Shown here one piece after another: positions 1 to 16,742 of a DNA stretch of 64,000 nt; the first letter of the stretch is position 1; each line of letters begins with the position of its first letter. Source of the DNA: Alphaproteobacteria bacterium GM7ARS4 (lineage in GTDB: Bacteria; Pseudomonadota; Alphaproteobacteria; GM7ARS4); the NCBI GenBank assembly GCA_014332745.1, contig JACONL010000003.1, forward strand, positions 38,207-102,206, read 5' to 3'. Under the pieces are notes generated by a model. It was not told the origin of the DNA and searched no databases. It worked only from the letters and a program-made list of their open reading frames with translations. The position numbers were made by a program, and so were the translations under genes.

Positions 1-3000
1 GTCCATGCCACATCTGTTGAGTCGAAAAATGACAATGTATCGTCAAGGGACGCCATGCCATCGCCAAAGGCGGTATGGAGATGCAAGCGGCCAAGGGCAT
101 CGAACAGCATGGTACCATCTTTGTCAGCGATTCGTTGATAATGGGAAGAACAGAGTCCGCCGCCTATAATGATACGAAGACCTTCGATGTTACAGAAGGC
201 GCTTCCTAAGACTCTTTCACCGATAGCCTCAGAGAGCTTTTGCTGGCCATCGTCATTGTTCTCTTGTGGCGCTGGTGGGCCACGTCCGCTACTATCTCTA
301 TCTCGCGGCGGCGTTGGATTGAGCATAGCGCATGCGACATGGGTTGAGCGGTCATTGCCGATAATAGTGCCTGATGCCGGCATCTGCCCACTAAAGAGGG
401 GCATACGTGTAAAGGGGCGTGATGCGCATGCTAAATCCAGCAATCCATGCCCATGCCGACGCATGGCGTAGTCGTTCCTGCGGTCGCCATCGAGATCAAA
501 GCGTTTGTCGGCCGTGAGGAGAATGCGTTCCACCAATTCGCGAGACTCTATTTGCACGCTTTCGGCGTTAAAGGCATCTTGTAGAATGGCAATGCCTCCC
601 GCCACCAACGCGGCGGCGGCATTGGCGGAGACAATGCTTTCACTGGAGAGACGATGTTCATAGCCTTGTGCGCCTTTCACGCGGTAGCGGTAGCGTCCGG
701 GGGCGGCGATACAGAATCCCTTTGCCACCGTGCCACAAGACGTCTGTCCGTCCTCTACGGCCACGACAGTGAGTGAGAGTGGGCGTATGGCCTCAGAGAA
801 GGCGGGAAGCCCTGCCATCAGCCCCACATCACTGGGCGCGCTTCCTCCTACCAATTGGTGAGGGTCTGATGCGGCGAAGACATAAATATCGTGTGTCGTG
901 GCGCGCCGGGCGCCAGCATGCGCATCATCTGTCAATCCCGCCTCTAATGCCTCGAGGATGTTATGCCTCCCGTGTCCATAGAGGGCATGCACAGCGTCCA
1001 AGCCTTCGTCTTCATCGCGCATAAACAAAGCGTGGTAATGGGCAAGATTGTTTTGCCTCTCATGGCGTATTGTATTCTCTAGGAGGACAATGTTGCGGGT
1101 CAGGTCTGGGAGACGTCTTGCGGTATCGATGCCTCGCGCCCGATAGATAAGGTCTATGGCATTAAAGGCGTCATTCCCTATGCGCGGTGTGGACAAGAAA
1201 CGCATCGATGCGCTCGGGGCGACGCCATGGATATTTGCTGCCAGCCTGTCATTGTCAGTGCTTCGGTGGGGGTCCATCAAGCCATTGACAAGGGCCAGCA
1301 TGCCCATATGTTGAGGCGTTGCCGCCTTGAGTGTTTGTGGTGCCAGCAATGCTGTGCTATCCCCTCTGTCATTCTGTCCTTGTAGGCTTGTGTCCGTATT
1401 CGTGACGATTTGGTAGGACTCGATATTGCCTTGTCCTTGTCCGTAGACTCTTCCTATGACATGGTAGGAAGAGGCGTCATCACCATGGGTGAGAAAAATA
1501 CGTCCTTGTGCCCGATATTCCCTTTGTCCTATGGTGGTGATATCCATCACCTCTCTTAGGATATTGAGGGATATATCGGACGTGTCACTGCCACTGAGAC
1601 GTTGGTAAAAGGCATCGAGAAAGGCTTGTCGCCTACGTCCAGCCACAGAAGCCACGTCGCCGCCAAGGAGGTCTTGCCTTGCCAATTGGTCTAGGGGCAT
1701 GGATGTGTCCTCTGTGCCGTCTGTATGGCGGAGGGCGAGGTTTATGGGGAGAGAGAAAAATCCTTGCGAGATAGCATCGGTGATGAATCCATCGTTATAA
1801 AAGACGACATGGTCCATGTGGTCGCCTGCGAACATGGTCTCTAGCAATTGAGACGCTGTTCTCTCTTGGTCGAGACGCACCATAAAGCGCGCTAATGTCT
1901 GGTAATCATCGGTATGGGCGCTACTGAATTCGGGGTGGGTCGGGTCAAAGAGATGGTTGCTGATAACGCTGATAGAGGCGCCTTTTCCTGTGTTGAATTG
2001 GAGCGCATCAATGGTCTCGCCAGTGACGCGGTCTGGATGGGCGCGCACATAGGCTTGGGCAACGCCAATTCTGGCGAAAGAGGGTGTATTTTGGTATTCC
2101 ACGCGCAATTTTTCTTGTAGACTGCTTGTTGCTGTCGTCATGCCTGTGGCGCCTGTGAAAAATTCTGTCCTTGTGGTGTCTTCGCTTGAAGACAACGTTC
2201 CTTGTGCCGATGACGTGCGTGTGACGGGAAGACAACGGCGCTCTCCTCCCTCATCATCATAGGTCAGCCCTGCCTCAAGGCATTGCTGTCTCGTTATGCA
2301 TTGTCCATGGGCGCGCTCACCGATGTTTTGGCCGCTACGATTGAGGGTTATCTCATCCCCCAGAGAGGTGCAGTCGCGCGCTGTGCCGCTTATGCCTCCT
2401 AACACACAGACGTCGCCAAAGGCTTTTCCCCTCGGTGCTGTCGATGCGATACCGTTATCTTGGAAACAGACGTCTCTATCGATGCATTGATATGTGGATG
2501 CCGTATTGAGGGCAATTTTTCCCGCTCCACAGGCGCTCGTGCTGTCGTTCTCGTCACTGACGATACAACGGGGCATATCACCTGTCTCATAGACTCGCGC
2601 CACACCATCAGAGGCGCAATGGCGCGCATCAGGCGTGAGACATCGGTTATTGGCGACAATCTCCCTATCACCACATGCGAGCACACAGGAAGAGCCTTGG
2701 CTGTCGAGCAATTGTCCTCCATCGTCATGACACGCCGCTGCGCGCTCATCGACAGTGTTTTCCTCATGCAAGACACATGCGCCAGCGACAACGGCGCGCC
2801 GTGACGTGGGAACGAGGCAATCAGCAATGGAGATACAATTGCCATGTGGGCGCGCGCCAATGGCTGAGCCTGTGGCGTTATAGACATACAAGCCCACCCC
2901 ATCACGTCTGTCCCTCGTTCCCGCGCATGTTGTGGCAGAGGCAGACACGCACCCTCTGTTCTCGACGCCATGGCCCGCGTCGACACAACGCTCGATAGGC

Positions 3001-4664
3001 ACACACACATTGTCATGTGTCCCTAAAATCCCACTACGGATATACCCAGCGGCACACGCCATGGCATCGGCAACACAGCGGGCATGGCCAATGCGCTCTT
3101 CAAACACTTGTCCGCCCCGATAGGCGCAGCTCGATGGTGACGCATCAGAACATCGCAAGAGCCTCCCATCATCGAGACTCAAGGGAGAAATCCCCTCACC
3201 AACGGCACAAGAAGCAACGCAACCATCGCCAGCTCTGTTCAAAAAATAATTGTCAGGGCATGCCGCAAGACGCGCTGCCGTCGATGTGTGTTGAGTCATA
3301 TGGAGACAACGGGCATCCTCAATGATAAAACCCGCCATGGTCTCACATGACAGACGTGTTTGGCAGCGGGACGCGCTATGGTCTAAGAGGCGCTTTAGCA
3401 TGCCACATTGCTGTTCCGTAGGCGCGTCAGAACATAGCCTCCTATCGGCATCATAGCCTTGAGCAACGGGACAGAGGAAGGCACTGACACAGCGATTATC
3501 GATGAGGGCATCGCCCATAGAGCATGCGCTGGCGAGACGTCTCTCTTCACATGCCGTCCCGCGCACCAAGAAGCCCGCCATGTCCGTGCATGCTGTTTGT
3601 GTGATACATTGTGGCATAGCGCTTTCCTCAAAACCCACCACATAGTCGGCATTGGTGCATGCAGAGCTCAGCACGCATTGCCCATCATCCCTATCGCCGA
3701 GACGCTCGCCAGTGCCATTATAAATTCCTCCCGTGCCAACGCATGATGTGGGCGATGCGGAGACACATTGACGCGATGCACGATCTACACCACGTCCCGC
3801 TATGGTGCGACAGGATTCTTGAGGCAAGCACACATGGGCAAGGTCGGCAAAATCGCCAACGCCAAGTCCCGTGCCACGAACAGAAGAGGGAGGGCACTGG
3901 TCAATGGTCGCCACACACCGCCCGCCTTCCCCTTGTCGGTCTAGGAGGCGCATGATAGATGCACATTGGCGCGCTGTGGGTGTTGAGACGCATGTTTTTG
4001 TGGCCTCATCATAGCCATAGGGATTGGGGCAATGTGTGGCGGCGTCTCGGCATTGCCCATCAAAGACAGCCTCGCTATCCCCGCATGCGGTAGCAGTGGC
4101 GACACATGATGTCCCGTTTTTATGGAGAATGCGTCCAATGGTGGTGCATTGTGTGGCGGTTGTGGGTGTTGAGACGCATGTTTTCGTGGCCTCATCATAG
4201 CCATAGGGGTTAGGGCAATGTGTAGCGGCGTCTCGGCATTGCCCGTCAAAGACAGCCTCGCCATGTCCACACTGAGTCCCGTGGGCGACACATGCTGTGC
4301 CTAGGTGATTGAGAATCCTGTGGATGGCGACACATTCATCAGTCGTCGGGCTTGCGGTGCAAAGCCGTGTTTCTTGCTGATACCCTTGGGCGGCGGGGCA
4401 GCGCGTTGCCTCTTGACATCGTCCTTCCATGAAGGCGTCGCCTTCCGCGCATGGGACATCGTTGCCTATCTCAACCTGTTCGCCCATATGCATCATCATC
4501 ATGCTGACATTGTCGGAGCATGCCACACAGAGCAGGAGGGGCATATAAAGAGACAAGCGCGTCAGCCTCTGGTGTCTTCTGGGGGCGGCTGTTCTTGTGG
4601 ATTTTTTCGTGAGTCTTGCTATGGTGAGGCGGTGGACATGGGGAAGAAAAAGACGTTGCAACAT
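1..4664 (-). CDS. Very large secreted cysteine-rich repeat protein with a C-terminal subtilase (peptidase S8)-like domain; the 3' end runs off the left edge (possible autotransporter passenger)
   Basis: Absent from the ORF track because no stop codon lies in the window. Hand translation of the minus frame (codon first bases = 2 mod 3) is open from ATG 4664 (alternative ATG 4544) down to position 1, and no other ORF in that frame is listed in 1-4600. The N-terminus is a basic stretch followed by LSLYMPLLLCVAC, which is signal/lipobox-like. About 2230-4500 holds ~18 four-Cys modules, e.g. GQCRDAATHCPNPYGYDEATKTCVSTPTTATQC. About 330-2000 holds S8-like blocks: TGKGASISVISNHLFDPTHPEF, FCIAAPG, SANAAAALVAGGIAIL, GHGLLDLACA. 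Confidence 0.65.
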   Translation of the reverse strand, partial: MLQRLFLPHVHRLTIARLTKKSTRTAAPRRHQRLTRLSLYMPLLLCVACSDNVSMMMMHMGEQVEIGNDVPCAEGDAFMEGRCQEATRCPAAQGYQQETRLCTASPTTDECVAIHRILNHLGTACVAHGTQCGHGEAVFDGQCRDAATHCPNPYGYDEATKTCVSTPTTATQCTTIGRILHKNGTSCVATATACGDSEAVFDGQCRDAATHCPNPYGYDEATKTCVSTPTARQCASIMRLLDRQGEGGRCVATIDQCPPSSVRGTGLGVGDFADLAHVCLPQESCRTIAGRGVDRASRQCVSASPTSCVGTGGIYNGTGERLGDRDDGQCVLSSACTNADYVVGFEESAMPQCITQTACTDMAGFLVRGTACEERRLASACSMGDALIDNRCVSAFLCPVAQGYDADRRLCSDAPTEQQCGMLKRLLDHSASRCQTRLSCETMAGFIIEDARCLHMTQHTSTAARLAACPDNYFLNRAGDGCVASCAVGEGISPLSLDDGRLLRCSDASPSSCAYRGGQVFEERIGHARCVADAMACAAGYIRSGILGTHDNVCVPIERCVDAGHGVENRGCVSASATTCAGTRDRRDGVGLYVYNATGSAIGARPHGNCISIADCLVPTSRRAVVAGACVLHEENTVDERAAACHDDGGQLLDSQGSSCVLACGDREIVANNRCLTPDARHCASDGVARVYETGDMPRCIVSDENDSTSACGAGKIALNTASTYQCIDRDVCFQDNGIASTAPRGKAFGDVCVLGGISGTARDCTSLGDEITLNRSGQNIGERAHGQCITRQQCLEAGLTYDDEGGERRCLPVTRTSSAQGTLSSSEDTTRTEFFTGATGMTTATSSLQEKLRVEYQNTPSFARIGVAQAYVRAHPDRVTGETIDALQFNTGKGASISVISNHLFDPTHPEFSSAHTDDYQTLARFMVRLDQERTASQLLETMFAGDHMDHVVFYNDGFITDAISQGFFSLPINLALRHTDGTEDTSMPLDQLARQDLLGGDVASVAGRRRQAFLDAFYQRLSGSDTSDISLNILREVMDITTIGQREYRAQGRIFLTHGDDASSYHVIGRVYGQGQGNIESYQIVTNTDTSLQGQNDRGDSTALLAPQTLKAATPQHMGMLALVNGLMDPHRSTDNDRLAANIHGVAPSASMRFLSTPRIGNDAFNAIDLIYRARGIDTARRLPDLTRNIVLLENTIRHERQNNLAHYHALFMRDEDEGLDAVHALYGHGRHNILEALEAGLTDDAHAGARRATTHDIYVFAASDPHQLVGGSAPSDVGLMAGLPAFSEAIRPLSLTVVAVEDGQTSCGTVAKGFCIAAPGRYRYRVKGAQGYEHRLSSESIVSANAAAALVAGGIAILQDAFNAESVQIESRELVERILLTADKRFDLDGDRRNDYAMRRHGHGLLDLACASRPFTRMPLFSGQMPASGTIIGNDRSTHVACAMLNPTPPRDRDSSGRGPPAPQENNDDGQQKLSEAIGERVLGSAFCNIEGLRIIIGGGLCSSHYQRIADKDGTMLFDALGRLHLHTAFGDGMASLDDTLSFFDSTDVAW
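3975..4259 (-). repeat. In-frame 186-bp tandem duplication inside the Cys-rich gene
   Basis: Near-identical ~99-bp cores at 3975-4073 and 4161-4259, offset by 186 nt. Both encode EAVFDGQCRDAATHCPNPYGYDEATKTCVSTPT. The out-of-frame track ORF 3941..4291 shows the same duplication (ARLSLTGNAETP / ARLSLMGNAETP). Confidence 0.85.
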
Positions 4665-4711
4665 GGTCGTAATTCTATAGTCTGTTCGTCTGAGATAGAG
4701 GCGTCGATAAA

Positions 4712-4792
<81 letters not shown>

Positions 4793-4795
4793 CTG

Positions 4796-4882
4796 GGAGA
4801 GGTGGCAGAGTGGTCGAATGCGCTGGTCTCGAAAACCGGTATGGGGGCAACCCCATCGAGGGTTCGAATCCCTCCCTCTCCG
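4796..4882 (+). tRNA. tRNA-Ser (anticodon CGA), long variable arm, CCA not encoded
   Basis: Acceptor ggagagg/cctctcc, anticodon stem ctggt/accgg with loop ctCGAaa, variable arm tatgggggcaaccccatc, T arm gaggg-ttcgaat-ccctc, discriminator g. Confidence 0.85.
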
Positions 4883-5013
4883 CACGAGACACACGCATGA
4901 TGCATGCGCCCCCTCCGCACCCATTTAGTGACGACTGCACCCCCTGTATGTCATAAAAAGACGAAGCGCGATGTTCTCGCTTGTCCTATCCCTCGTGCCA
5001 AGGGCGACACTGA

Positions 5014-7170
5014 CTACATGAGGTGATGTAGGCGGTATTTTTCTAGGTAAGGCTTCAGAGTGAAATAGGTCTCGCTATAATTCTCTGAGAGCTTGGCGAA
5101 TTCAGCGATTCGCCTTAGTTCTGCCTCTGCCAATTTTTTTCCATCACGGGAGGCATACCCGTCTCTTTCCTTCAGCATGACGCAAAAGTCATAGATGATG
5201 GCCTTTTCCTTATGCGGGCTTTTCCTGAGGATTCGTCCCCGTCTTTGGATGAATTGGCGGGAATTTCTCGTACTGGCGAGAATAAACGCTGTCTTACATG
5301 CGGGGATATCGACACCTTCATCTAAACATTTCATGGCCACCAAGGCATGGATGTCGCCATCCTTAAAATCATCCAAAATGCCCTCCCTTTCCTTTTTGTT
5401 TTGCGCCGCCGTGAATTGACTGGTTCGCCATCCATGCCTATGCGCTATCTTCTGTATGGCGCTAATGTGCTTGACATCGTCCTGTCCATCGTCCGCGCTC
5501 TCACCTTCTAACGTCCCTTCAGCACAATAAAACAGGGTGTATTTGATAGGTTTTTTTATGTCCCTGAGTATGTCTGCTAGTTTTGTTCTTTTGCTTTCTG
5601 CTCCATTGACGACCTGTGTTCGTTTCCTCAACAGCGTGTTGAGACGCATACGGGCCTGTTGACTGTTCCCCGTATCACCTGAATTTTCGAGGATGGCGTA
5701 TAGACGGGCTATCTCTTTTGAGAGGGTTATATAGTCCTCTGTTTCGGCATGGTTGAGTTCTGTGAGCATAGGATAATAGTCATAGGGCGTGAGCACGCCA
5801 TCATCGAGGGCATCTTTCAGGGAATATGTGGAGACGACTTTGCCATAATAGCGGTTGATACGATGGGCGCTTTCGTCCTCCTCATCTTGTTCCTCTCTCC
5901 GTGTCCCAGGGGTGGCGGACAATCCCATGCGAAATCGCGCCTTGGCGGGCAGAGATTGCGCTGTTCTGTCAGCGCCATGGTGATGGCACTCATCGCCAAT
6001 GAACAAGAAGGGGATGTTCTCCTTGAGCCTCTGTAGCTGGCCTAGAAATGTGCCCTTTGGCGATGTCAATGTGGCATTGACGACGATGGCAACACAGAGG
6101 TCAATATGACCCCGATGGAGGGCTGATATGTTCCTGTCTAACCTGTCGCGCCATGTCTTTTCACCGCCATAGCACATGATGGGATGGAGCTTGAAGAGCC
6201 GCATATTCTCTGCCCATTGCTCGGCAAGGTTCTGGTAAGGGACGGACACAACCACGAACAAACGTTTTTTCTCTTCATAGAGTTCTACAGCGCCATAAAT
6301 TGCGGTGATGGTTTTGCCAGAGCCTGTGGCATGCTCAAAGATCCCATGGTCATTGTTTCTTTTCCATGATTCCAAAGCGTCCCTTTGGTGCGGTCTTAGT
6401 TGGATACCCCCACGTCTCTTTTCTTGGTCTTGCGGGGGAGGGGGGGACTCGCCTGTATCATACCATGCCTGCCATAGAGCGATTTCGTCCTGTATGCTCG
6501 GGCGGTGAATGGATGATTGTGACAGCACGTTTTGCGCTATGGATGAAAAATCGATGACATGCGTGTCTTTCGCTCGGTTGTGCCATAGGTCATCGAAACT
6601 GGTGATATGTGGTTCATAGTGGTCTTTAAATTCATGACGCCAGCCCTTAAACACATTGATTGTTTCATAGTTGAACGGGAGTAAAGCACTGAGGGTTTCA
6701 TTGGCAGAGCCCTGAAAGACGATAAAATCGTCATGTGTATCCCTAAAGATACCAATTTTCTGGTGGTGTATGCCATGTCGTCTCAGGGCGATCTTGACAT
6801 CGAGGGCGCGTTCCCGCACCATCCATGTCAGCACATTGAGCTGATGTTTAAAGAGGTCTGAGTCGTCGCTTTGAACGATACGGCGAAAATCATGCTCTAG
6901 CCTCTCTTTGATGGGACGTACGTCATATCCCTTTTTGATGGCTTGGTATTCCTCCTCGCTGAGGGTGGCGCCACAGACAAGGCGCATGTACCCTCCGTTT
7001 TCGATAAAGACGGCAAGGCCACTGGCGGCGCTCGTCAGCATCTTGGCATCGAAATACCCAACGGCGCGGTCATAAGACACGGCATGGGAGAGGATGGGGA
7101 TGTAAAAGTCGGTGAGGATATTATCCTGTTCCGAATTATAGACGGCCTTGAGGGTGACGTCTCTCAGCAT
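5014..7170 (-). CDS. HKD (phospholipase-D family) nuclease domain fused to an SF2 ResIII/DEAH-type helicase; last gene of the candidate defence operon
   Basis: 718 aa. The N-terminal ~200 aa carry a single HKD motif, H136-Q-K138-IGIFR-D144 followed by GSAN (154-157), at nt 6700-6765. Helicase motifs are I HATGSGKT (K286), II DECH (393-396), III SATP and VI QRRGR (642-646). The ATG at 7170 lies 1 nt after the stop of the upstream gene. Confidence 0.85.
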   Translation of the reverse strand: MLRDVTLKAVYNSEQDNILTDFYIPILSHAVSYDRAVGYFDAKMLTSAASGLAVFIENGGYMRLVCGATLSEEEYQAIKKGYDVRPIKERLEHDFRRIVQSDDSDLFKHQLNVLTWMVRERALDVKIALRRHGIHHQKIGIFRDTHDDFIVFQGSANETLSALLPFNYETINVFKGWRHEFKDHYEPHITSFDDLWHNRAKDTHVIDFSSIAQNVLSQSSIHRPSIQDEIALWQAWYDTGESPPPPQDQEKRRGGIQLRPHQRDALESWKRNNDHGIFEHATGSGKTITAIYGAVELYEEKKRLFVVVSVPYQNLAEQWAENMRLFKLHPIMCYGGEKTWRDRLDRNISALHRGHIDLCVAIVVNATLTSPKGTFLGQLQRLKENIPFLFIGDECHHHGADRTAQSLPAKARFRMGLSATPGTRREEQDEEDESAHRINRYYGKVVSTYSLKDALDDGVLTPYDYYPMLTELNHAETEDYITLSKEIARLYAILENSGDTGNSQQARMRLNTLLRKRTQVVNGAESKRTKLADILRDIKKPIKYTLFYCAEGTLEGESADDGQDDVKHISAIQKIAHRHGWRTSQFTAAQNKKEREGILDDFKDGDIHALVAMKCLDEGVDIPACKTAFILASTRNSRQFIQRRGRILRKSPHKEKAIIYDFCVMLKERDGYASRDGKKLAEAELRRIAEFAKLSENYSETYFTLKPYLEKYRLHHLM

Positions 7171-7171
7171 C

Positions 7172-7714
7172 TTACGACTCTGCTGGTTTGTCGTCTGTGG
7201 ACTCTGTGGGTTTATCGTCTGTGTCCGTGGCGGGTTCTTCTTGCTTGGACGTCTCAGACAGATACCCGTCTTCTTTCAATCCTTTGATGATGGCGTGGGC
7301 AAGGGTGTCTCCATACCCTTTTTTCACCCATGTCGCTAAAATGTTGAGCCCTCGATGGGCATACTCCTCAAAAATTTGCTCCATACCTTTGTTCCTCTCC
7401 TGAGAGGCTTTCCCCTCGTCTGACGTGTCGTCGAGAATGGAGATGTCTTGCGTATCAGCCAGAGCAGTGATGAAGATGTAGTCATGGAGATCATCAGCGG
7501 CAAAATCATACCACTGTATTCTATCCTTTCCAGAGGAGTCGGCAGGCAGGGAGTCTGGTGGTACGCCGTCCTGATAGCCGAGGAGGGCGGCATAGCAGAG
7601 CAGCTCTCTATATGACTGGAAAATGGCGACCTTGCTTCCTCCTTGCTTCCTCGTCAATCCCTGCATGAGGGGTAGGTGTTTTTTATCAAAGTATATTGGA
7701 CGCATGACGGGCAC
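7172..7714 (-). CDS. Small protein of unknown function with an acidic tandem-repeat C-terminal tail; third gene of the candidate defence operon
   Basis: 180 aa. The core (FQSYRELLCYAALLGYQDG ... IFEEYAHRGLNIL) recalls, from memory only, small proteins annotated as Dnd system-associated. The tail is ATDTDDKPTESTDDKPAES. The gap to the upstream ATPase stop is 5 nt. Confidence 0.6.
   Translation of the reverse strand: MPVMRPIYFDKKHLPLMQGLTRKQGGSKVAIFQSYRELLCYAALLGYQDGVPPDSLPADSSGKDRIQWYDFAADDLHDYIFITALADTQDISILDDTSDEGKASQERNKGMEQIFEEYAHRGLNILATWVKKGYGDTLAHAIIKGLKEDGYLSETSKQEEPATDTDDKPTESTDDKPAES
7176..7223 (-). repeat. 24-bp tandem repeat (2 copies) encoding the acidic tail TDDKP(T/A)ES
   Basis: gactctgctggtttgtcgtctgtg (7176-7199) and gactctgtgggtttatcgtctgtg (7200-7223), 21/24 identical. 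Confidence 0.85.
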
Positions 7715-7719
7715 TCTCT

Positions 7720-9750
7720 TTATCTGATTTTCTCAATGCGTGTCATGTTTCTTTCGCAACCATAAAGGGTTGTTTTAATGCGCTTGCCATCTGGCAATAT
7801 AAGGATGTCATCGGGCTTATCGCCCTGTTCTCCTTTATTTTCAACAATGAGCGCATATTGAGCACCGATTCTTCCCTTGAGCGCGCCTAACACGTCCTCG
7901 TCGCCTTGGGAGCTAGAGACGAGGATGACGACCTGTTGGGCCATCTGAGGCAAAAATGTCGCCGTTGCCTTACGATAAGAAGGGTCGAGATTCCCAAAAG
8001 GCGAATCCAGGAAAAGGGGCGCCACCGTGCCGGGCTTGAGGAATGTGTCTGTATTGTCATGCCTATCCGCCGAGAATTTGACGAGGGCCGCCATGAATGC
8101 CAAACTGAGGAGTTGCTTCTCACCGCCACTCTTGCCGACTGGCGCGCCTGTGTCTTTTCTAAACATGCTCAATCTAAAGGACTCGTCTAGAGACGCCTCG
8201 TATTCTCGCCGCGCCGTCTCGTCAAGGATGGCATTGATGTCTTGGATGATGGTGTGACGTGATTCCTCACGATATGTCGTGAGTTCTGTGTTGAGGCGGG
8301 CGCATGCCGCCTCAATGAGGGCGACCCATGCGCATGCCATCACATACGCCCGGTCGTCCCTGCCTTTCCCCTTCTTTTTCGCCAGACTCTGGTTCGCGAA
8401 GGCTATATCCTTTTCAACATCGGCGCATTTCTGTTCCAACCTCCCAAGTTGTTTAAAGGTGCTTTTGATCCTGTCCTTGGTCTTCCGCAATTCATCTTCT
8501 TTTTTGGTAATCTCTTTATGACTCAAACCCCTTATCTTTTTGCCACATGCTTTAATTCCTCTTTCTATCTCGTCGATATCGCTGTCTAATAAGATCATTG
8601 CACCCGCTATCTTGTCATACGCAGATTGCGCTGACGAGCGTTTTTCTTTGAGCTCACCTGATCGCAGCTTTATTCGAAGCCAGCGGTCATTCATGGTTTT
8701 TGTCGCAGCATTCACGAGCAGTTCTCGAATTGCTTTCTCTTCATCTGAACCAGGCTCGAAGGGCCTGCCACAGATGCATACGCCCCGTTTAAGAATCTCT
8801 TTGACAAAAAATTCTGCAATGTCGCTCGGTAATTTCCCGTCGTCCTCGGCTTTCTTAGTGACTGTCTCGCACTCTTCCATAGCCCGTTGCGACAGCAAGG
8901 CAATGCTATAATCACTAATCCATGCAATTTCCTCACGCTCCTTGTGTGACCGTTCTTTTTTCTTGTCTTTCAGGTCCTTCTCAAGACGTTCTCTCTTTTC
9001 TTGGATGACTCTTACTTTATCGATGTCTTTCAGCTCCTGTTCGATGCTTTTTTGCTTATCTTCTTCAACCTTTAACTGTCCTTTCAAGCCAGCGATCTCT
9101 TCTGAAAGTTTCTTCCTCTGTTCCTTTAGGTCATTAATTTTTTTCTGGTCCTTTTTCGTTTTATCATCGTTCGCGTTGATTTCCGCAATCTCTCGCTCTT
9201 TCGTTTCAGCGATAGCCTTGAGGTTATCCTTGGCATGGTTGGCTTTATGACAGCCGAGCATGTGCTCGATGGCTTTCTTGACATGTTCTGTATTATCTTG
9301 ACTAGAGAAATATTCAGCATGTTCGCCATCAAAAAAGAAGTGGTTAGCCATCTCATCTGGTATGACAGCGTCAACGAGTGGCTGGGGGTACGGCATAACG
9401 TTACCATTGCCATCAGCAATGTCCCACGCCTTTAGCGTCATCTCCCCGCTATGGTCTATACGCCTCTTTACATCATAGTCCTTGTCTTTATGCTCAAAAG
9501 ACACGGTGACGGACGCATGCTCCGCCCCTTCCTCTCTCGCTTGGTCACAGATAATTCTCTCTTTGAATTCAGTGCGTGCCGTCATGCGCCCATGGAAGCA
9601 CCAGAGTAGGGCATTGAGCAGGGCGGTCTTGCCAACGCCATTCTCGGCATGAATGAGGGTGACATTCCTCTCCTCATCTGTGGACAGGGTGAACTCCTGT
9701 TCCCCGTAGAATTGCCTGAAGTTTTCTAAAGAAATGGTCTCTAACCGCAT
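7720..9750 (-). CDS. DndD/SMC/Rad50-like ABC ATPase with long coiled coils and a central CxC hook; second gene of the candidate defence operon
   Basis: 676 aa. The N-terminus is MRLETISLENFRQFYG, with Walker A ENGVGKT (K41, nt 9628-9630). Lys/Glu-rich coiled coils span about aa 170-300 and 395-460. KRGVCICGRPF (C325/C327, nt 8770-8778) sits between the arms. ABC signature SGGEKQ is at 541-546 and Walker B/D-loop PLFLDSPFGNLD at 578-589. Confidence 0.85.
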   Translation of the reverse strand: MRLETISLENFRQFYGEQEFTLSTDEERNVTLIHAENGVGKTALLNALLWCFHGRMTARTEFKERIICDQAREEGAEHASVTVSFEHKDKDYDVKRRIDHSGEMTLKAWDIADGNGNVMPYPQPLVDAVIPDEMANHFFFDGEHAEYFSSQDNTEHVKKAIEHMLGCHKANHAKDNLKAIAETKEREIAEINANDDKTKKDQKKINDLKEQRKKLSEEIAGLKGQLKVEEDKQKSIEQELKDIDKVRVIQEKRERLEKDLKDKKKERSHKEREEIAWISDYSIALLSQRAMEECETVTKKAEDDGKLPSDIAEFFVKEILKRGVCICGRPFEPGSDEEKAIRELLVNAATKTMNDRWLRIKLRSGELKEKRSSAQSAYDKIAGAMILLDSDIDEIERGIKACGKKIRGLSHKEITKKEDELRKTKDRIKSTFKQLGRLEQKCADVEKDIAFANQSLAKKKGKGRDDRAYVMACAWVALIEAACARLNTELTTYREESRHTIIQDINAILDETARREYEASLDESFRLSMFRKDTGAPVGKSGGEKQLLSLAFMAALVKFSADRHDNTDTFLKPGTVAPLFLDSPFGNLDPSYRKATATFLPQMAQQVVILVSSSQGDEDVLGALKGRIGAQYALIVENKGEQGDKPDDILILPDGKRIKTTLYGCERNMTRIEKIR

Positions 9751-9759
9751 GGTATAATC

Positions 9760-9984
9760 CTATTTGGACATCTCCTTATATGCCTGTGACACCACGAATT
9801 CGATCCGTTTTCTTATCTCCCTTAGTCTCACTGAGTCGCCAGTTCCGGGCTCATACGGCTCGTCCTCCAGCTTCATTATATGGGTCAGGAGGATTTCAAC
9901 CCACCCCTTACTTGTGACGCGTTCTATAAGGGCATTGAGCATGGAATTCTCGGGGTCTTGTGGCAAAGGTAAATCTTGTGACAT
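9760..9984 (-). CDS. Small hypothetical protein; first gene of the candidate defence operon
   Basis: 74 aa with no recognisable motif. GGGAGA Shine-Dalgarno about 7 nt upstream of the ATG at 9984. Its stop is 9 nt before the ATPase ATG. Confidence 0.5.
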   Translation of the reverse strand: MSQDLPLPQDPENSMLNALIERVTSKGWVEILLTHIMKLEDEPYEPGTGDSVRLREIRKRIEFVVSQAYKEMSK

Positions 9985-10060
9985 GGGCGCTCTCCCGTCT
10001 CTTGATGGTTGGCATGGCTGAGGCGCAATGCTCGCAAGGCACTCAACCTATGATAGCACA

Positions 10061-10089
10061 AGTGTAAAGAGGGGGTGACGTTGATTCAA
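10061..10089 (-). promoter_or_regulatory. Candidate sigma70-type promoter for the four-gene operon
   Basis: The minus strand reads TTGAAT (10089-10084), a 17-nt spacer, then TACACT (10066-10061). This lies about 75 nt upstream of ATG 9984. Confidence 0.4.
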
Positions 10090-10100
10090 CCATTTTTTCA

Positions 10101-10125
10101 TTGACCCTTTTGACCTTTTTGACCC
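10101..10125. repeat. Three direct TTGACC(C/T) repeats with 9-bp periodicity
   Basis: ttgaccc (10101), ttgacc (10110) and ttgaccc (10119) separated by T-runs. They lie between the candidate operon promoter and tRNA-Leu. Confidence 0.8.
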
Positions 10126-10207
10126 ATGAGCCCGCCTATTTTGATTTTGCTAAAATGCTGTCATGGCATTAGGATGGGGACACAAAGAGAGGGCGGGGCG
10201 TTATCAT

Positions 10208-10294
10208 GCCTCCGTGGCGGAATTGGTAGACGCGACGGACTCAAAATCCGTTTCTCGCAAGAGAGTGCCCGTTCGAGTCGGGCCGGAGGTACCA
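10208..10294 (+). tRNA. tRNA-Leu (anticodon CAA), CCA encoded
   Basis: Acceptor gcctccg/cggaggt (G1-U72 wobble), D arm gcgg-aattggtaga-cgcg region, anticodon loop ctCAAaa, long variable arm, T arm gcccg-ttcgagt-cgggc, then a-cca. Confidence 0.8.
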
Positions 10295-10371
10295 AACATC
10301 ATGCGCGCCACTTAGGCACACGCCAACCATAGAGACACCAACCAAAAATAGATAAGATACACAACATATAT

Positions 10372-11382
10372 ATGTCGTCCTTCCTTTCTCTCGTCATCGT
10401 CCAAGGGCTGTTCTTTGTCTATATGCTCAAGGGGGGTATACGCTTAGGCTATGCCTTGCTTCTACCCTTTACGAACATACACCTTGACCCTATTTATCCC
10501 GCCAGCACCAGCCTCTTCGAACAGCATAAAAAGGCCGATGAATTATGGCTTGTGCTTGCCTTTTTTGCTCTTCTCACCCTCAGTGACGCATGGCGTGGGC
10601 TTATGCCAATCCTCCAAGCTCCCCTCTTGTCGCTCCTCTTGTTTTTCTGTCTTCACTACGCCTTGTTATTGTTGGAAAGACAACAGAGAAAAACGACCCG
10701 TTTCCCCGTCATCGCCTGTTGTCTCGCCGCCAATGCCCTCGTCATCACATCCCTGCTGACATACATTGTCATCGTCGTGGCGGGATTAGAACGGGTGACA
10801 GATATTCCCGCCCATATCCTTGTCCTTGTGGCGCTTTTTCTCACGACACCATCCTTATGTATCATGCTCGCTGTCCAGAGATTGCCAAAATCGCCCTTCG
10901 TGGATCGCCTCTCCCTCGGCATTGTCTTGTTTCTCTGTATGCTCCTGCCTGTTATCAGCTTGCTCCCCATACAAAGCGCCGACACATTGTGGCATCAATT
11001 GCCTCTGGCTGTGCCTCTCGCCCTTATCCCTTTTTTCTTGTGCGTGAATGCTGTCGCCCTTGTGGCAAGCATCAAGGCAAGGCTCGCCCATCCACCCTAT
11101 CCGACTCTGTGCGCCCCTCCTTTCCTCGCCTATAGTTTCTCGCTTCTCACCTTTATCGGTCTCGGTATCACGCTACAAACACCCCATCATCACGCCATCG
11201 ACCAAGCCTCTCTTACGCCATCCTCAACCATATCCTTATGGGCGCTGCTGTTTATTATTGCCTCTGTCATCGTCCTCTTATGGTGGGAAGAGACATCGAG
11301 ACGCATGCGCCTCCTGCGCGTCTTCCACAGACTAGGCCTCACATCGCCCTTCCGCTTCCTATGGAAAGAAGGGAAGAGATAA
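10372..11382 (+). CDS. Polytopic integral membrane protein, function unknown
   Basis: 336 aa with about 9-10 hydrophobic segments and no recognisable motif. The 3' end overlaps the convergent gltS by 24 nt. Confidence 0.5.
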   Translation: MSSFLSLVIVQGLFFVYMLKGGIRLGYALLLPFTNIHLDPIYPASTSLFEQHKKADELWLVLAFFALLTLSDAWRGLMPILQAPLLSLLLFFCLHYALLLLERQQRKTTRFPVIACCLAANALVITSLLTYIVIVVAGLERVTDIPAHILVLVALFLTTPSLCIMLAVQRLPKSPFVDRLSLGIVLFLCMLLPVISLLPIQSADTLWHQLPLAVPLALIPFFLCVNAVALVASIKARLAHPPYPTLCAPPFLAYSFSLLTFIGLGITLQTPHHHAIDQASLTPSSTISLWALLFIIASVIVLLWWEETSRRMRLLRVFHRLGLTSPFRFLWKEGKR

Positions 11383-12636
11383 AAAGGACTGAATGACAGC
11401 GACATTAAGAATGTCGATAAAGAACGCGCCTACAAGAGGCACGATGAGAAAGGCTTGTTGAGACGCCCCGTAACGCTCGCTGAGCGCGCCCATGTTAGAG
11501 ACGGCTGTGGGCGTCGCCCCTAAACCAAAGCCACAATGACCGCCAGCGACAACAGCCGCATCATAATGCGTCGCCATCACCCGCCCCATGACACGATAGG
11601 TGATGACCTGAGCATAGACCGCCATCATGACGACTTGTCCCGCTAAAATAACGAGCATGGGAAGGGCGAGATGCACCAATTCGCCTACATTTAGCGCCAT
11701 AATGGCAGACGCCAGAAAAAGACCCAGAGAAACACGCGCAATAATATCGAGAATAGGAAGCTCAAGCACAGGGATATGGGCAATATCACAGCTGTTACGA
11801 ATGATAATGCCCGCCATAATGACCCACACAAACGTTGGAATTGTCAGCGTGCTGTCCGTCCCCTCCATCCACGTATCCATCCACCCCGCAAAGAGAACAC
11901 AGAGCAAAATAACAAACATATGCACTAAAAACCCTTGAATGCCCGGACTCGGCATCATCTCTCTGCTCGTAAAGAACATGGATGTCACGGACTGAGGTGA
12001 GTCGCGTGTGTCGCCTGTCTTCTCGGTCGTAGGCTTTAACCCGTGACGTTGGATGAGGCGTTGTGCCACAGGACCACCCAGCAAGCCTCCCGCCACCAAA
12101 CCAAAGGTTGCCGCCGCTAGTGAGATTTCTTTTGCCCCTTGCAAACCATATGTCTCCTCGAAAAGCGCGCTCCACGCTAATCCCGTCCCATGACCTCCAG
12201 AGAGTGTCACCGAGCCACCAATGAGACCAACGGCTGGATGGACGTCCATGAGCCATGCGAGGACAATACCCACGCTATTTTGCATCACTAAAAGCCCCGT
12301 GGCGATGAGGAGAAAAAGAGGAATATGCGAACCGCCTTGAAGTAAGAGCTTATAACTTGCGCCTAAACCCACTGTAGCGAAAAAACTCAGCATCAAGACA
12401 TCCTTGACGGATTCATCAAATGTTATCACCATGAGGCCCGACTGCACGAACGCACTCACCAAGAGAGATGCCATAAGACCGCCAGCAATGGCCGCGGGAA
12501 TGTTGTTCTCCCTCAGCCAAGGTATGCGCGCGACCAAAACCCTCCCCAAGAATAAAACGGGGAAAGCGAGCGTCAAAGTCTCTATAAAGGTGAATGCCAT
12601 AGACAAAGAGTGTAGAGGGGGAGCGTACAGGGTCAA
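11359..12636 (-). CDS. gltS: Sodium/glutamate symporter (GltS family)
   Basis: 425 aa. The polytopic profile and N-terminal region (LTLAFPVLFLGRVLVARIPWLRENNIPAAIAGGL) are typical of GltS. The true start may be the internal MAFTF. Confidence 0.7.
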   Translation of the reverse strand: MTLYAPPLHSLSMAFTFIETLTLAFPVLFLGRVLVARIPWLRENNIPAAIAGGLMASLLVSAFVQSGLMVITFDESVKDVLMLSFFATVGLGASYKLLLQGGSHIPLFLLIATGLLVMQNSVGIVLAWLMDVHPAVGLIGGSVTLSGGHGTGLAWSALFEETYGLQGAKEISLAAATFGLVAGGLLGGPVAQRLIQRHGLKPTTEKTGDTRDSPQSVTSMFFTSREMMPSPGIQGFLVHMFVILLCVLFAGWMDTWMEGTDSTLTIPTFVWVIMAGIIIRNSCDIAHIPVLELPILDIIARVSLGLFLASAIMALNVGELVHLALPMLVILAGQVVMMAVYAQVITYRVMGRVMATHYDAAVVAGGHCGFGLGATPTAVSNMGALSERYGASQQAFLIVPLVGAFFIDILNVAVIQSFLSLPFFP

Positions 12637-12684
12637 GAGAACATCTAACCTATATAATCGTTTCCTTGAAGAGGCAAGGATATC

Positions 12685-13968
12685 ATGGAAGAAAGCACGT
12701 CAACGGTCAAGACAACACGCCCCCATACAGGCGCATTGTCTGGTATGACCGTCCTTGACATGACACGCGTCCTCGCAGGACCTACATGCACGCAGATTCT
12801 TGGCGACCTTGGCGCTGACATTCTGAAAATAGAACGTCCCATCCATGGCGATGATTCTCGCGCCATGGGACCGCCCTATGCTGATGCCCATGCCGACAAT
12901 CCCCAAGAGAGCGCCTATTTTATCAGCGTCAATCGCAATAAACGTTCCCTTGCGCTCAATCTTACCCAACCCCAAGGACAGGCGATCGCCCGCCAACTCA
13001 TGGCGAAAAGCGATATTGTTGTCGAAAATTTCCGAAAAGGAGTCACCGAACGCTGGCAACTGGATTATAGCACGGCATGCCGTCATCACCCCCATATCAT
13101 CTATTGTTCGCTCAGTGGCTTTGGACGCACAGGACCCTATGCAGACCGAGGTGGCTATGATTTCCTCATACAAGCAATGGGAGGACTCATGAGTATCACT
13201 GGCGACGTCCATGGAACACCCATGAAAGCCAGCGGCGGACTCATCGATGTGCTCACAGGACTCTACGCATCGACAGCGATCCTTGCGGCTCTTCACCACC
13301 GCCAACGCACAGGACAAGGGCAACATATCGATATGGCGCTCTTTGATACCCAAATAGCCTATCTAGGATATATCGCCCAATCCTATCTCATGTCGAAGGA
13401 GATGCCACAACGCTACGGCAATAGCCATCCCACCATTGTGCCATACCAACTCTTTCACGCTCAAGACGAACCCATCATCCTTGCCATCGGTAGCGACCTC
13501 CAATTCCAGCGATTCTGTCATTATGCGCAATGTGACGCCCTCGCCCAAGACAAGCGATTCGCAACGAATGCAACGCGTGTCCAACATAGGCAAGAATTGA
13601 TAGGACAGCTCCAACATATCATAAAACAGCACAACGCCCAGTATTGGTGTGAAGGGCTCACACAATGCCACGTCCCATGCTCACATATACGGGCTATTCC
13701 CGATGTCCTCAAAGACCCGCAGGCACAGGCGCGCCATATGGTGCGCCATATGCCTTATCAACCATCGGGACATGCCAAACAAGAGACCTTGCCCTTTATC
13801 GCCTCGCCCATGACAATGGAGAAAACACCCATCCAATATCGACATCCTCCGCCCCGTTGTGGCGAACAGAGCAACGCCATCCTCAAAGAGTATCTTGGCA
13901 TGACGGATAAGGACATCACGCGCCTCATAGAGGACGGGATCGTCTCCTCGCCTTCACAGAAGAGATAA
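12685..13968 (+). CDS. CoA-transferase family III (CaiB/BaiF-type) protein
   Basis: 427 aa with the family-typical N-terminus LSGMTVLDMTRVLAGPTCTQILGDLGADILKIERP..GDDSR. Confidence 0.8.
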   Translation: MEESTSTVKTTRPHTGALSGMTVLDMTRVLAGPTCTQILGDLGADILKIERPIHGDDSRAMGPPYADAHADNPQESAYFISVNRNKRSLALNLTQPQGQAIARQLMAKSDIVVENFRKGVTERWQLDYSTACRHHPHIIYCSLSGFGRTGPYADRGGYDFLIQAMGGLMSITGDVHGTPMKASGGLIDVLTGLYASTAILAALHHRQRTGQGQHIDMALFDTQIAYLGYIAQSYLMSKEMPQRYGNSHPTIVPYQLFHAQDEPIILAIGSDLQFQRFCHYAQCDALAQDKRFATNATRVQHRQELIGQLQHIIKQHNAQYWCEGLTQCHVPCSHIRAIPDVLKDPQAQARHMVRHMPYQPSGHAKQETLPFIASPMTMEKTPIQYRHPPPRCGEQSNAILKEYLGMTDKDITRLIEDGIVSSPSQKR

Positions 13969-14002
13969 AGACAACGATAGGAACGATTTTTCCAAATTTC
14001 TG

Positions 14003-14031
14003 TTGACAGCCTCTCTCTTAAACTCTATCTA
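14003..14031 (+). promoter_or_regulatory. Near-consensus sigma70 promoter with no downstream protein gene
   Basis: TTGACA (14003-14008), a 17-nt spacer, then TATCTA (14026-14031). Confidence 0.5.
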
Positions 14032-14037
14032 TAGGAC

Positions 14038-14144
14038 ACACGGGGATGTTGCCGTCCGCAGTCGTGTGGCGCATCATGTGTTCCCCGTCATTATGCTCTC
14101 CGGGCCCACCCTGCCCCCCCCAGGGTCCGGGGGGCACTTTTTTT
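14038..14144 (+). ncRNA. Candidate small RNA (~105 nt), unclassified
   Basis: Bounded by the promoter above and an intrinsic terminator (C8/G6 stem plus T7). There is an internal hairpin acgggga...tccccgt. It lies between convergent genes, the CoA-transferase and dapD. Confidence 0.4.
14114..14144 (+). terminator. Rho-independent terminator
   Basis: A C-run (14114-14121) pairs with a G-run (14129-14134) around the loop agggtcc, followed by cac and TTTTTTT (14138-14144). Confidence 0.6.
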
Positions 14145-14166
14145 AAAGGCAAGGGCGGGAGGGGCT

Positions 14167-15093
14167 TTACGACTCTCGTAACAAGGCATTGAGGGATGTT
14201 TTGCGTCGAGTCTGCGCATCTACCTTCTTGACGATCACAGCCACATTGAGAGAGGGCAAACGCACATCGTCTGTGGAGGCGTGTGGCGCTGGCAAACTGC
14301 CCGGAACGATCACCGAATAGGGAGGCACTTCGCCATAGGTGATGTCGCCTGTTGCCCTATCGACAATCTTCGTCGATGCGCCCAGATAGACACCCATGGC
14401 AAGAACACTTCCCTGCCCCACACGGACGCCTTCCGCTATCTCACAGCGCGCACCAATAAAACAATCATCTTCGATAATAACGGGAGTCGCCTGTAAAGGC
14501 TCTAACACGCCACCAATCCCTGCCCCCCCTGATATATGGCAATTATTGCCAATGTGCGCACAAGAGCCCACTGTCGCCCATGTGTCCACCATCGTTCCCG
14601 TTCCCACATAGGCGCCGATATTGATAAAACATGGCATAAGAACAGCCTGACGCCCGATATAGGCGCCACGGCGAATGATAGAGCCCGGCACAGCGCGAAA
14701 TCCATGACGTCTCCATGTCGCCTCGTCCCAGCCACTTGTCTTGAGAGGCACTTTGTCGAACCACTGCCCTGCCACGCCACCGCCTCGAAGGTCATGGCCA
14801 AAGGACAGAACACGGCTCTCTTCTATGGTGAAAGAGAGGAGAATGGCTTTTTTCACCCATTGATGAACGCGCCAACCACCTTCCTCATGGGTTGCCACCC
14901 TGAGAACGCCTTCATCGAGGAGGTCAATGGTCTGACGCACCGCATCGACGGCGTCCTTGTCCAGCGAGGAAGAGGCATGGTCATAGGCGCGCTCTACCCG
15001 TCGTTGTATATCCCTATAGCGCTCACTCTTATGATGACTTGTGGCTGTCATGCTCCTGTCGTCATGGTATCGCTCGCCCCTTAGGGTGAGCAT
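14167..15093 (-). CDS. dapD: 2,3,4,5-tetrahydropyridine-2,6-dicarboxylate N-succinyltransferase
   Basis: 308 aa with hexapeptide-repeat left-handed beta-helix sequence ([59 protein letters not shown]). The start is probably an internal Met. Confidence 0.85.
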
Positions 15094-15995
15094 GGCGTGT
15101 GTTTGATAATGGTGCCCGCCCCATGTTCTGTGAAAATCTCCAATAAGAGGGCATGAGGCTTACGCCCATCCAAGATGACGGCAGCCTCTACCCCTTGTTC
15201 TACCGCACGGAGACACGTGTCGACTTTGGGAATCATCCCGCCATGGATTGTGCCATCTCGCATATAGGTTCGCGCCTGTTCGATATCGAGCGTTGGCATG
15301 ATCGCCCCTCCTTTATCCTTGATTCCTTGCACATCTGTCAACAGCATAAAACGTTTTGCCCTCAAAGCAACGGCAATGGCGCCAGCCGCCGTGTCAGCAT
15401 TGATATTATACGTAAGGCCATCATCGCCCGATGCAACGGGAGCAATGACGGGAATGACACCTTGTCCCCCCAATATCGTTAAAATATCAGGGTTGACATC
15501 GTGAGGCTCGCCCACAAAACCTAAATCCAAGACGTTCTCAATATGCGATTCATGGTCGCGCTTTTTATGTGTCACCTTTTTTGCTGTCATCAATCGCCCA
15601 TCTTTGCCAGATATGCCTATGACGTTCCCCCCCGCATGGTGAATGAGAGAAACAATCTCTTTGTTGATAGTACCCGCTAAAACCATCTCGACAATGAGCG
15701 CTGTCTCCTTGTCCGTGATACGCAAGCCATCGATGAACGCGCTCTTGATTTTGAGACGCTCTAACATCGCACCGATCTGCGGCCCGCCCCCATGCACGAT
15801 GAAAGGACAAATACCGATATGTTGGAGCAAAATAATGTCTGTGGCGAATGTATCCATGAGGTTCTTGTCGCCCATGACAGCACCCCCCAATTTGATGACA
15901 AAGTTCTTCCCTCGATGTAGACGCATGTAGGGAAGGGCTTTGGCAAGGATACGCGCCTCTTCATGGGGCGATACGGCTGACGGAGACGCTGGCAT
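15081..15995 (-). CDS. argB: Acetylglutamate kinase
   Basis: 304 aa with [23 protein letters not shown] and [11 protein letters not shown], typical of ArgB. Confidence 0.9.
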
Positions 15996-16004
15996 TGGCA
16001 GACC

Positions 16005-16742
16005 TCACATAGATAAAGCCCTTGGGGATGACGCCATCGGGGATGACGCCCTGATGGCAATCTGTCGCCTCAGAGTCGAGAGCCCCTCTTTGCTCTTCAC
16101 ACTGACGGCGCATATGGTCGTGAGGGGAGGCGCTGAGGAACGTATCGGGGACAGAGAGGAGCGCATCACATGCTGGTGTGTCTCGATAGACTTTTTGCAT
16201 GTGTCAAGGTCCTTTGCCTTATCACATTTCGTCATGACAATATGATAAGGAACAGCGTGTTCACACAGCCATGCGACAATCCCTTGGTCTGTCTTGTGTA
16301 TGCCATGACGCCCGTCCACAAGGAGAAAGAGACAGCATAATGTCTCACGCCTTAAGAGATAATGTTGCCCTAGCATGCTCAAGGCGCTGGCGTGTTTTTT
16401 CCCTATTCCTGCATACCCATAGCCCGGCATGTCCACGAGGCGCACATTCATGTGCGCATGCTCGTAAAAATGGAGAGCGCGGGTACATCCGGGCTTTGTC
16501 GATGTCGGCGCAAGAGTCTTCCTATAGAGCAACGCATTGAGCAAACTCGATTTTCCCACATTGGAACGCCCTAAAAAGGCTATTTCCCGATGACTGGGAT
16601 GGGGTGCCATCGACATATGGGTCGCCCGTCTCACCATCGTCCATGCATCCTTAGCAAAGAGAGAACGCACCGTCATAGACGGCGACGTGGGGAGAGGGGG
16701 ATGGCTTATGCGTATGGCATGCTGTTCCATCATGAGTCTCAT
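16005..16742 (-). CDS. engB: Ribosome-biogenesis GTPase YihA/EngB
   Basis: G1 motif GRSNVGKSSLLNAL. The track ORF extends to 17021, but that extension overlaps yidC. ATG 16742-16740 overlaps the yidC stop (ATGA), which suggests translational coupling. Confidence 0.8.
   Translation of the reverse strand: MRLMMEQHAIRISHPPLPTSPSMTVRSLFAKDAWTMVRRATHMSMAPHPSHREIAFLGRSNVGKSSLLNALLYRKTLAPTSTKPGCTRALHFYEHAHMNVRLVDMPGYGYAGIGKKHASALSMLGQHYLLRRETLCCLFLLVDGRHGIHKTDQGIVAWLCEHAVPYHIVMTKCDKAKDLDTCKKSIETHQHVMRSSLSPIRSSAPPLTTICAVSVKSKEGLSTLRRQIAIRASSPMASSPRALSM

Follow-up and report, generated by a model that had tools for sequence, protein, structure and literature searches.

This locus raises the question of whether four tightly packed minus-strand genes represent a new kind of bacterial immune system or a known one in unfamiliar surroundings. 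The genes lie at 5014-9984 of a 64,000-nucleotide stretch of DNA from Alphaproteobacteria bacterium GM7ARS4 (assembly GCA_014332745.1, contig JACONL010000003.1, positions 38,207 to 102,206; the whole stretch is called the window here). They encode a small protein, a coiled-coil ABC ATPase, a second small protein and a nuclease-helicase fusion, and an initial annotation had read them as a defence operon that matched no known system. Judged from its proteins, the cassette is instead a copy of the named PbeABCD antiviral system, that is, the CxC ABC-ATPase/DndE/HKD-helicase system. There is very good reason to regard it as a complete and intact restriction module of this type, which most likely depends on modification genes at some other place in the genome or, failing that, is a recently orphaned and idle half.

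The pbeABCD genes received their name in 2019 from a study of Haloterrigena jeotgali A29, which also demonstrated their antiviral action (Xiong et al., Nat Commun, PMC6459918). The components there are PbeA (PLD, ResIII and helicase-C domains), PbeB (66 amino acids, aa), PbeC (an AAA_23 ATPase) and PbeD (152 aa), and the dndCDEA-pbeABCD combination lowers SNJ1 plaquing about 10^4-fold, with each of the four pbe genes required (PMC6459918). Protection depends on the phosphorothioate (PT) modification itself and involves a block to viral DNA replication, and PbeABCD without PT gives neither protection nor toxicity (PMC6459918). In a 2024 reappraisal in Nucleic Acids Research, PbeA is described as an HKD endoDNase joined to a superfamily 2 (SF2) helicase and PbeD as a DndE cognate; PbeB is a small protein that evolves rapidly, and PbeC an ABC ATPase with a CxC hook that belongs to the sister clade of DndD and not to the SMC proteins (PMC10853773). 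A 2025 review still calls the restriction mechanism of Pbe 'obscure', and no solved structure of any Pbe component is returned by sequence search.

The strongest evidence for the identity of the cassette comes from its two large proteins. The PADLOC model for PbeA matches at 6e-231, over residues 2-700 of the protein and positions 1-680 of the 682 in the model, and the helicase half is matched at 2.5e-135 by NCBIfam TIGR04095, dnd_restrict_1 ('DNA phosphorothioation system restriction enzyme'). Pfam recognises ResIII (6e-21) and Helicase_C (3e-15), with a weak match to PLDc_2 (4e-4) that falls below the gathering score. The protein thus has the HKD nuclease fused to an SF2 helicase (ResIII plus Helicase_C) that characterises PbeABCD, and its translation contains H136-x-K138 ... 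GSANE, GSGKT, DECH, SAT and QRRGR. Across 35 homologues of 44-60% identity the invariant residues include H136, K138, N157 and E158 of the HKD domain, K286 of Walker A, D393/E394 of the DECH motif, S418-T420 and R643/R646. An AF2 (AlphaFold 2) model built on the alignment of these homologues has a pLDDT (predicted local distance difference test score) of 84. Its best fold match in the PDB is SauUSI (7clg, E 2e-21, ~700 columns), followed by XPB helicases and other SF2 translocases that include the Type ISP enzyme LlaBIII. SauUSI, an ATP-dependent Type IV restriction endonuclease, shares with PbeA the layout of an N-terminal PLD-family nuclease followed by an SF2 helicase. However, SauUSI is a single polypeptide of 953 aa that attacks modified DNA and carries its own C-terminal target-recognition domain, whereas PbeA (718 aa) lacks such a domain and works with PbeC and PbeD partners; the two are ~14-15% identical.

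The ATPase is matched by the PADLOC PbeC model at 1.9e-172, over protein residues 1-632 and the whole of the model (positions 1-629 of 629). The 25 PADLOC matches listed for it are all PbeC or DndD models, with no Wadjet or Lamassu assignment among them; the DndD models are far behind, and the NCBIfam model for DndD, TIGR03185, reaches 5.8e-45 without passing its cut-off. Identity is 36-42% to the positional orthologues and ~22% to DndD. The motifs GVGKT, C325-I-C327, SGGEKQ and FLDSP can all be read in the translation. When sequences extracted from related loci are aligned, all 79 PbeC proteins have CxC and none of 38 DndD proteins does; the Walker A lysine and Walker B aspartate are invariant, and the signature motif is also present in the window PbeC. 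The protein is therefore a CxC-hook ABC ATPase distinct from both DndD and SMC, as expected of PbeC. The earlier description of a 'DndD/SMC-like ATPase' is right as to a coiled-coil ABC ATPase but not as to a strict SMC protein. There is a CxC hook instead of a hinge, no kleisin/JetD-type or Lamassu effector partner is encoded alongside, and a total length of 676 aa leaves a coiled coil far shorter than that of SMC proteins (800-1000 residues, PMC10853773). PbeC and PbeD resemble the DndD-DndE pair of canonical DndABCDE, being a paralogous combination of an ABC ATPase and a small DNA-binding protein, but the Pbe pair is associated with a nuclease-helicase instead of the sulfur-insertion enzymes DndA and DndC, and DndD has no CxC hook.

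The second small protein, PbeD, belongs to a family with a precomputed Pfam entry (PF27807) and is matched at 1.6e-13 by TIGR04062, dnd_assoc_4 ('DNA phosphorothioation-associated protein 4'). A word-indexed homology search with the 177-aa protein returned only itself, and its counterparts were taken from related loci by position; BLASTP E-values to these are 3e-11 to 6e-27. The start had been placed at an ATG at 7714, but the codon there is GTG, as the C-D junction (TAA-AGAGA-GTG-CCC-GTC-ATG) makes plain. All the positional homologues align from residue 4 of the 180-aa version (MRPIY... against MRSIY...), and the metagenome annotation also gives 177 aa, so the start is most likely the ATG at 7705. 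PbeD lies directly after PbeC, where PbeABCD cassettes encode their DndE-cognate small protein. Profiles of PbeD (63 sequences) and DndE (32 sequences) are aligned end to end by hhalign, over 102 columns (P 3.4e-4, probability 38%), which supports, but does not decide, that PbeD is a DndE cognate and gives weak support to a fold of two ribbon-helix-helix (RHH) units. The acidic repeat tail reported previously is real: it stems from a 24-bp tandem duplication at 7176-7223, within a tail region (7172-7223) that specifies a TDDKPxES repeat, and it is private to the window copy. A C-terminal phenylalanine (...FDEVEF, ...ISF) ends PbeD in all the nearest relatives and, across the clade, in 14 of 15 members.

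The first gene of the cassette encodes the candidate for PbeB. Neither Pfam nor PADLOC nor NCBIfam gives a match for the 74-aa open reading frame (ORF), and a word-indexed homology search with it returned only itself. Nearly every related locus has a small ORF of 35-95 aa located 5' of PbeC, and the 74-aa ORF falls inside this size range and lies on the same strand, 9 nt 5' of pbeC. Aligned with the small proteins of the relatives it keeps to their register (VEILLTHIMKLEDEPY and VEKFLTRVIEIEESPV, respectively), with a score that is not significant. A profile of the small proteins of the clade ranks it first of 1485 background segments at a non-significant E of 0.09, and one built from only the five nearest relatives gives E 2.4, with 17 of 5000 shuffles reaching its score. 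Since the profile scores are not significant, its membership of PbeB rests on position and size.

The window has the same components as H. jeotgali A29, the 74-aa ORF being a candidate for PbeB, co-oriented in one unit, with full-length matches to the PADLOC PbeA and PbeC models. It differs from that archetype in the order B-C-D-A, a cyclic permutation of A-B-C-D, in its bacterial host, in lacking an adjacent dndCDEA and in the private tail of PbeD. From the systems that a CxC ABC ATPase anchors in the 2024 analysis (PMC10853773) it differs in nothing substantive: the gene set, with the candidate PbeB, is the same, the CxC marker is present, and only the genes for cytosine methylases and MTaX1 that some members carry are lacking. 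The domain reading in the initial annotation is upheld, with all of its listed motifs found in the translations, and so is its assignment of the cassette to defence. Its proposal of a previously undescribed system does not survive the full-length PADLOC matches, the dnd_restrict_1 and dnd_assoc_4 assignments and the 2019 and 2024 publications. The annotation had itself said that assignment to a named system by such tools would count against novelty, and PADLOC makes that assignment for PbeA and PbeC. It had also asked whether homologues of the four genes co-occur, and the same four-gene architecture is found in dozens of loci.

More than 4000 proteins among the candidates examined belong to the PbeA family at E <= 1e-20, and relatives are found in at least 573 species genomes (from many bacterial phyla and from archaea) and in 27 plasmids. 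The nearest are 42-59% identical, and no other sequence exceeds 59% identity to the window PbeA. RefSeq names for homologues include 'DNA phosphorothioation system restriction enzyme' and 'DNA phosphorothioation-associated protein 4', and a copy on a RefSeq Rhizobium plasmid reads, in order, hypothetical protein, AAA ATPase, DNA phosphorothioation-associated protein 4 and DEAD-DEAH helicase. Gene content was surveyed with the ORFs of 84 related genome loci, scored with seed profiles. Among 79 classified loci the archetypal order A-B-C-D occurs in 61, which are farther from the window, while the order B-C-D-A accounts for 18 entries, including the window itself and its duplicates, and marks its closest relatives (the order is seen at loci L002-L016, L021, L023 and L086-L090).

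These relatives are closely tied to modification genes. A phosphorothioation module lies within the 10-kb flanks of 68 of 83 related loci (41 Dnd and 27 Ssp-like), and six of the 83 have full 10-kb flanks and no module. The association is complete among genome loci with the B-C-D-A order, all 15 of which carry a module (six Dnd, nine Ssp-like), and extending the set by the five further nearest loci gives an adjacent Dnd or Ssp-type module in 20 of 20. The Ssp-adjoined cassettes are L002, L003/L006, L007, L011-L016, L021, L086-L090 and others. In the nearest relatives the pbeA stop codon is followed, only a few bases on, by a convergent block that begins with a gene for an ~850-aa protein, followed by SspD-, SspC-, SspB- and SspA-like genes. 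The first protein (~840-900 aa) has RNA_pol_A_CTD and Sigma70_r4 matches and a faint HARE-HTH match. Together with Pbe these genes make up a conserved nine-gene block that is sometimes found on conjugative plasmids; no description of the Pbe-Ssp pairing was found in a non-exhaustive search of the literature. The alphaproteobacterial Pbe-SspABCD loci (for example Rhizobium indigoferae plasmid pRinCIP108029a, Cohaesibacter and metagenomic contigs L087-L090) are identical to the window in gene order and protein sizes. They differ in the convergent modification block straight after pbeA, where the window has tRNA-Ser and tRNA-Pro, and in a PbeD that ends in ...(D/E)VEF, which that of the window does not.

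The slot held by the Ssp or Dnd module in the relatives is thus occupied in the window by two tRNA genes and an unrelated giant ORF. The adjacent or co-resident PT modification module of PT-dependent Dnd-Pbe defence (PMC6459918) is absent from the 64 kb, in agreement with the earlier observation of no methyltransferase and no dnd or ssp genes, which holds for the whole window. Searches by tblastn with Dnd and Ssp seeds also detected no modification-gene remnants there. Adjacency of a modification module is not treated as defining in the literature: 320 of 553 Pbe cassettes were counted as solitary, by the criterion of dndCD within 10 kb only (PMC6459918), and CxC systems outside DndD-centred modules are reported from 'numerous bacterial taxa' (PMC10853773). 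With solitary cassettes already on record in both papers, the solitary state is not new, though it is exceptional in this clade.

Several other PADLOC matches in the window do not represent defence genes. An SspH that might have formed a PT-sensing system was considered at 31553-33919 (+), but the match (SspH/mad8, 4.7e-55) is a partial, domain-level one to the motor domain of a housekeeping FtsK. A PbeA/DinG/DpdF match at 56704-58773 (-) is a housekeeping-type helicase that resembles the PbeA C-domain in part, and an MzaA match at 23690-24580 (+) is a partial, domain-level one from a 297-aa protein. The scan also gave mad3 and AriA matches, which were not traced to individual proteins.

The layout of the locus is given in the table. 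The coordinates of the four ORFs agree with those first reported; all are uninterrupted and lie on one strand, in the transcriptional order pbeB-like, pbeC, pbeD, pbeA. The gaps had been given as 9, 5 and 1 nt. The outer two stand (9 nt for B-C, 1 nt for D-A, from the junction sequences), but the middle one becomes 14 nt when PbeD starts at ATG 7705, 5 nt being the value for GTG 7714. Gaps of 1-14 nt between same-strand ORFs sustain the view of the genes as operon-like, and by this packing the four are predicted to form a single transcription unit. No consensus sigma-70 promoter and no convincing intrinsic terminator was found around the cassette, and neither kind of element stands out inside it.

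Features of the cassette and its boundaries (coordinates in the window)
Feature	Position	Strand	Description
PbeB-position small protein	9760..9984	-	74 aa, ATG start; first gene of the operon, 9 nt 5' of pbeC
PbeC	7720..9750	-	676 aa, ATG start; CxC-hook coiled-coil ABC ATPase, DndD sister clade
PbeD	7172..7705	-	177 aa from ATG 7705; 180 aa with GTG 7714
PbeA	5014..7170	-	718 aa, ATG start; single-HKD PLD-family nuclease + SF2 ResIII/DEAH helicase
tRNA-Pro(GGG)	4712-4789	+	ARAGORN, Rfam; downstream cassette boundary
tRNA-Ser(CGA)	4796-4883	+	ARAGORN, Rfam; downstream cassette boundary
tRNA-Leu(CAA)	10208-10294	+	ARAGORN; upstream cassette boundary
Presumed promoter region	9985-10207		223 nt, between tRNA-Leu and the 74-aa ORF

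The reported tRNA flanks are confirmed, with three tRNA genes bounding the cassette. The AT-richer context is real: cassette GC is lower, at 0.491 against 0.528 +/- 0.010 for 5-kb windows elsewhere (minimum 0.506), but only modestly so, and third-position GC (GC3) in the cassette (0.55-0.57) equals that of housekeeping genes (0.53-0.58), so composition gives no strong sign of recent transfer. Around the cassette there are no att-like direct repeats and no integrase was found. Its neighbours are housekeeping genes, among them those for YidC, GatB, Tgt, QueA, MutL, an amino-acid kinase, a CoA-transferase and a glutamate symporter; the surroundings are not a defence island. Scans of reference genomes with PbeA and the neighbouring glutamate symporter found nothing, and none of the species representatives is closely related to the host.

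Some other features of the surrounding DNA deserve mention. The giant open frame on the minus strand at 1-4985 runs off the left edge and has at least 1554-1661 codons by stop-codon counts, with a likely start at ATG 4664. It contains Cys-rich repeats of ~62 aa (a 156-nt direct repeat at 3975-4130 and 4161-4316) and then a non-repeat part of ~720 aa. Nothing in Pfam, PADLOC, NCBIfam or the PDB sequences matches it. When 1.84 billion representatives were searched exhaustively, only 67 relatives emerged, the best of which are 2100-5935 aa with up to 8 separate matching stretches; on these matches it is a member of a rare family of giant proteins without a recognisable domain. A public 28-kb metagenome contig (JGI Ga0189854_1000194, sample 3300017830) is 100% identical to window 4096-17170 and ends inside the 156-nt repeat, so its assembly probably broke there. 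On the other side of the cassette, directly after tRNA-Leu, a 336-aa ORF at 10372-11382 (+) matches nothing in Pfam, PADLOC or NCBIfam, so that by these libraries it is not an integrase. At ~15500-19500 the sign of the GC skew reverses, with a cumulative minimum near 16 kb, by yidC (16739-18475), and this region may be the chromosomal replication origin region.

How would such a module act? The following steps are drawn from the family and not from this copy. PbeC would dimerise through its Zn-hook (CxC) and its ATPase heads and, together with a DndE-like DNA-binding PbeD, may scan or loop DNA and so read specific sites and their modification state. PbeA is predicted to combine an ATP-driven SF2 translocase and a single-HKD nuclease domain, and it is probably active as a dimer, like other single-HKD nucleases. 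Directed to unmarked foreign DNA, it would nick, cleave or stall that DNA, and viral DNA replication would stop. The small, fast-evolving PbeB could serve as a regulatory or stabilising subunit. The invariant residues of PbeA, the Walker A, Walker B and signature motifs of PbeC and the four unbroken ORFs are the grounds for judging the module intact. Because the archetype needs PT marks on the host DNA and there are no modification genes within the 64 kb, dependence on a module elsewhere in the genome is favoured.

A number of points weigh against this reading. No Dnd, Ssp or methyltransferase gene is present among the 55 ORFs of the window scanned with PADLOC, and reliance on a distant modification module, although most likely, is a deduction from the archetype. 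The candidate PbeB is put forward on position and size, with insignificant profile scores. PbeD scores 51 bits against TIGR04062, below the curated NCBIfam cut-off of 74 bits, its single-sequence AlphaFold model reaches a pLDDT of only 41, and, alone in the clade, it has an acidic tail in place of the C-terminal Phe motif. The activity of this copy is predicted from the family only, and within the family the papers disagree on DNA cleavage, none of viral DNA having been seen in one (PMC6459918) and the conserved HKD domain being taken to argue for it in the other (PMC10853773).

The absence of a modification module could also mean that the cassette is a remnant, orphaned when an SspABCD-like or Dnd module was lost by deletion or rearrangement beside the tRNA genes, so that the restriction half left behind is silent or without function and will in time decay. 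All 15 same-order loci and the five further nearest have a module beside PbeA just where the window has tRNA genes, and the absence of toxicity of PbeABCD without PT (PMC6459918) means that an orphan could persist. The private duplication in the tail of PbeD and its lost C-terminal Phe may reflect relaxed constraint. However, all four ORFs are intact and every invariant catalytic residue is kept, no modification-gene remnants are detectable in the window, and GC3 has come to equal the host values, a sign that the cassette has long been resident without decaying; an orphaned remnant is a possible but somewhat unlikely account. A slightly less probable one, to be held only tentatively, is that the cassette defends without self-marking, for example as a sensor or abortive infection system in which the small protein restrains the HKD nuclease until a phage factor removes it, a model that has been suggested for CxC systems (PMC10853773). 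The many cassettes reported without a neighbouring Dnd module, the six related loci that have full flanks and likewise no module, the invariance of the HKD residues and the fast evolution of the small protein, as expected of an interface with phage factors, are all in keeping with this. These are family-level points, with nothing direct for the window copy, and the sole experiment on the family showed strict PT dependence (PMC6459918). Moreover, when Ssp-type modules are counted too, most of the cassettes in this survey that would be 'solitary' by the dndCD criterion prove to be linked to a PT module.

The two remaining explanations concern what the cassette is, and both are very improbable. 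A previously undescribed immune system, as first proposed, has in its favour only that two small proteins have no PADLOC models, and it would have to accommodate the full-length PbeA and PbeC models, the dnd_assoc_4 and dnd_restrict_1 matches, an identical architecture in dozens of loci and the papers of 2019 and 2024. A housekeeping complex for DNA repair or chromosome maintenance, with a Rad50/SbcC-like ATPase and a helicase-nuclease, was considered in view of weak Rad50, SMC and RecF matches to the ATPase heads and of the housekeeping neighbours. Against it, the defence families match best by more than 100 orders of magnitude. The patchy distribution across phyla and on plasmids, the tight linkage to PT modules elsewhere, and the lower GC and tRNA-bounded placement of the cassette here also speak against it. 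A PbeABCD restriction module served from elsewhere in the genome therefore remains the preferred reading.

The cassette adds a divergent bacterial member to the Pbe family and not a new defence system. Its relatives indicate that most related Pbe cassettes adjoin a PT module once the Ssp type is counted beside Dnd (68/83 in this sample), and that the B-C-D-A clade is consistently linked to such modules, mostly SspABCD-like ones (9/15 genome loci and all the nearest relatives). The window copy, set against 20 clade relatives, is the sole one without a module, an intact but 'unplugged' cassette in which the C-terminus of PbeD has been remodelled. It is conceivable, if rather doubtful, that it may now work without PT marks, the Phe motif then being what couples Pbe to the modification module; if so, the window copy would provide a handle on self/non-self discrimination by Pbe systems. 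Being intact, orphaned and altered in the tail of its PbeD, it is a reasonable natural test case for the need of Pbe systems for PT marks.

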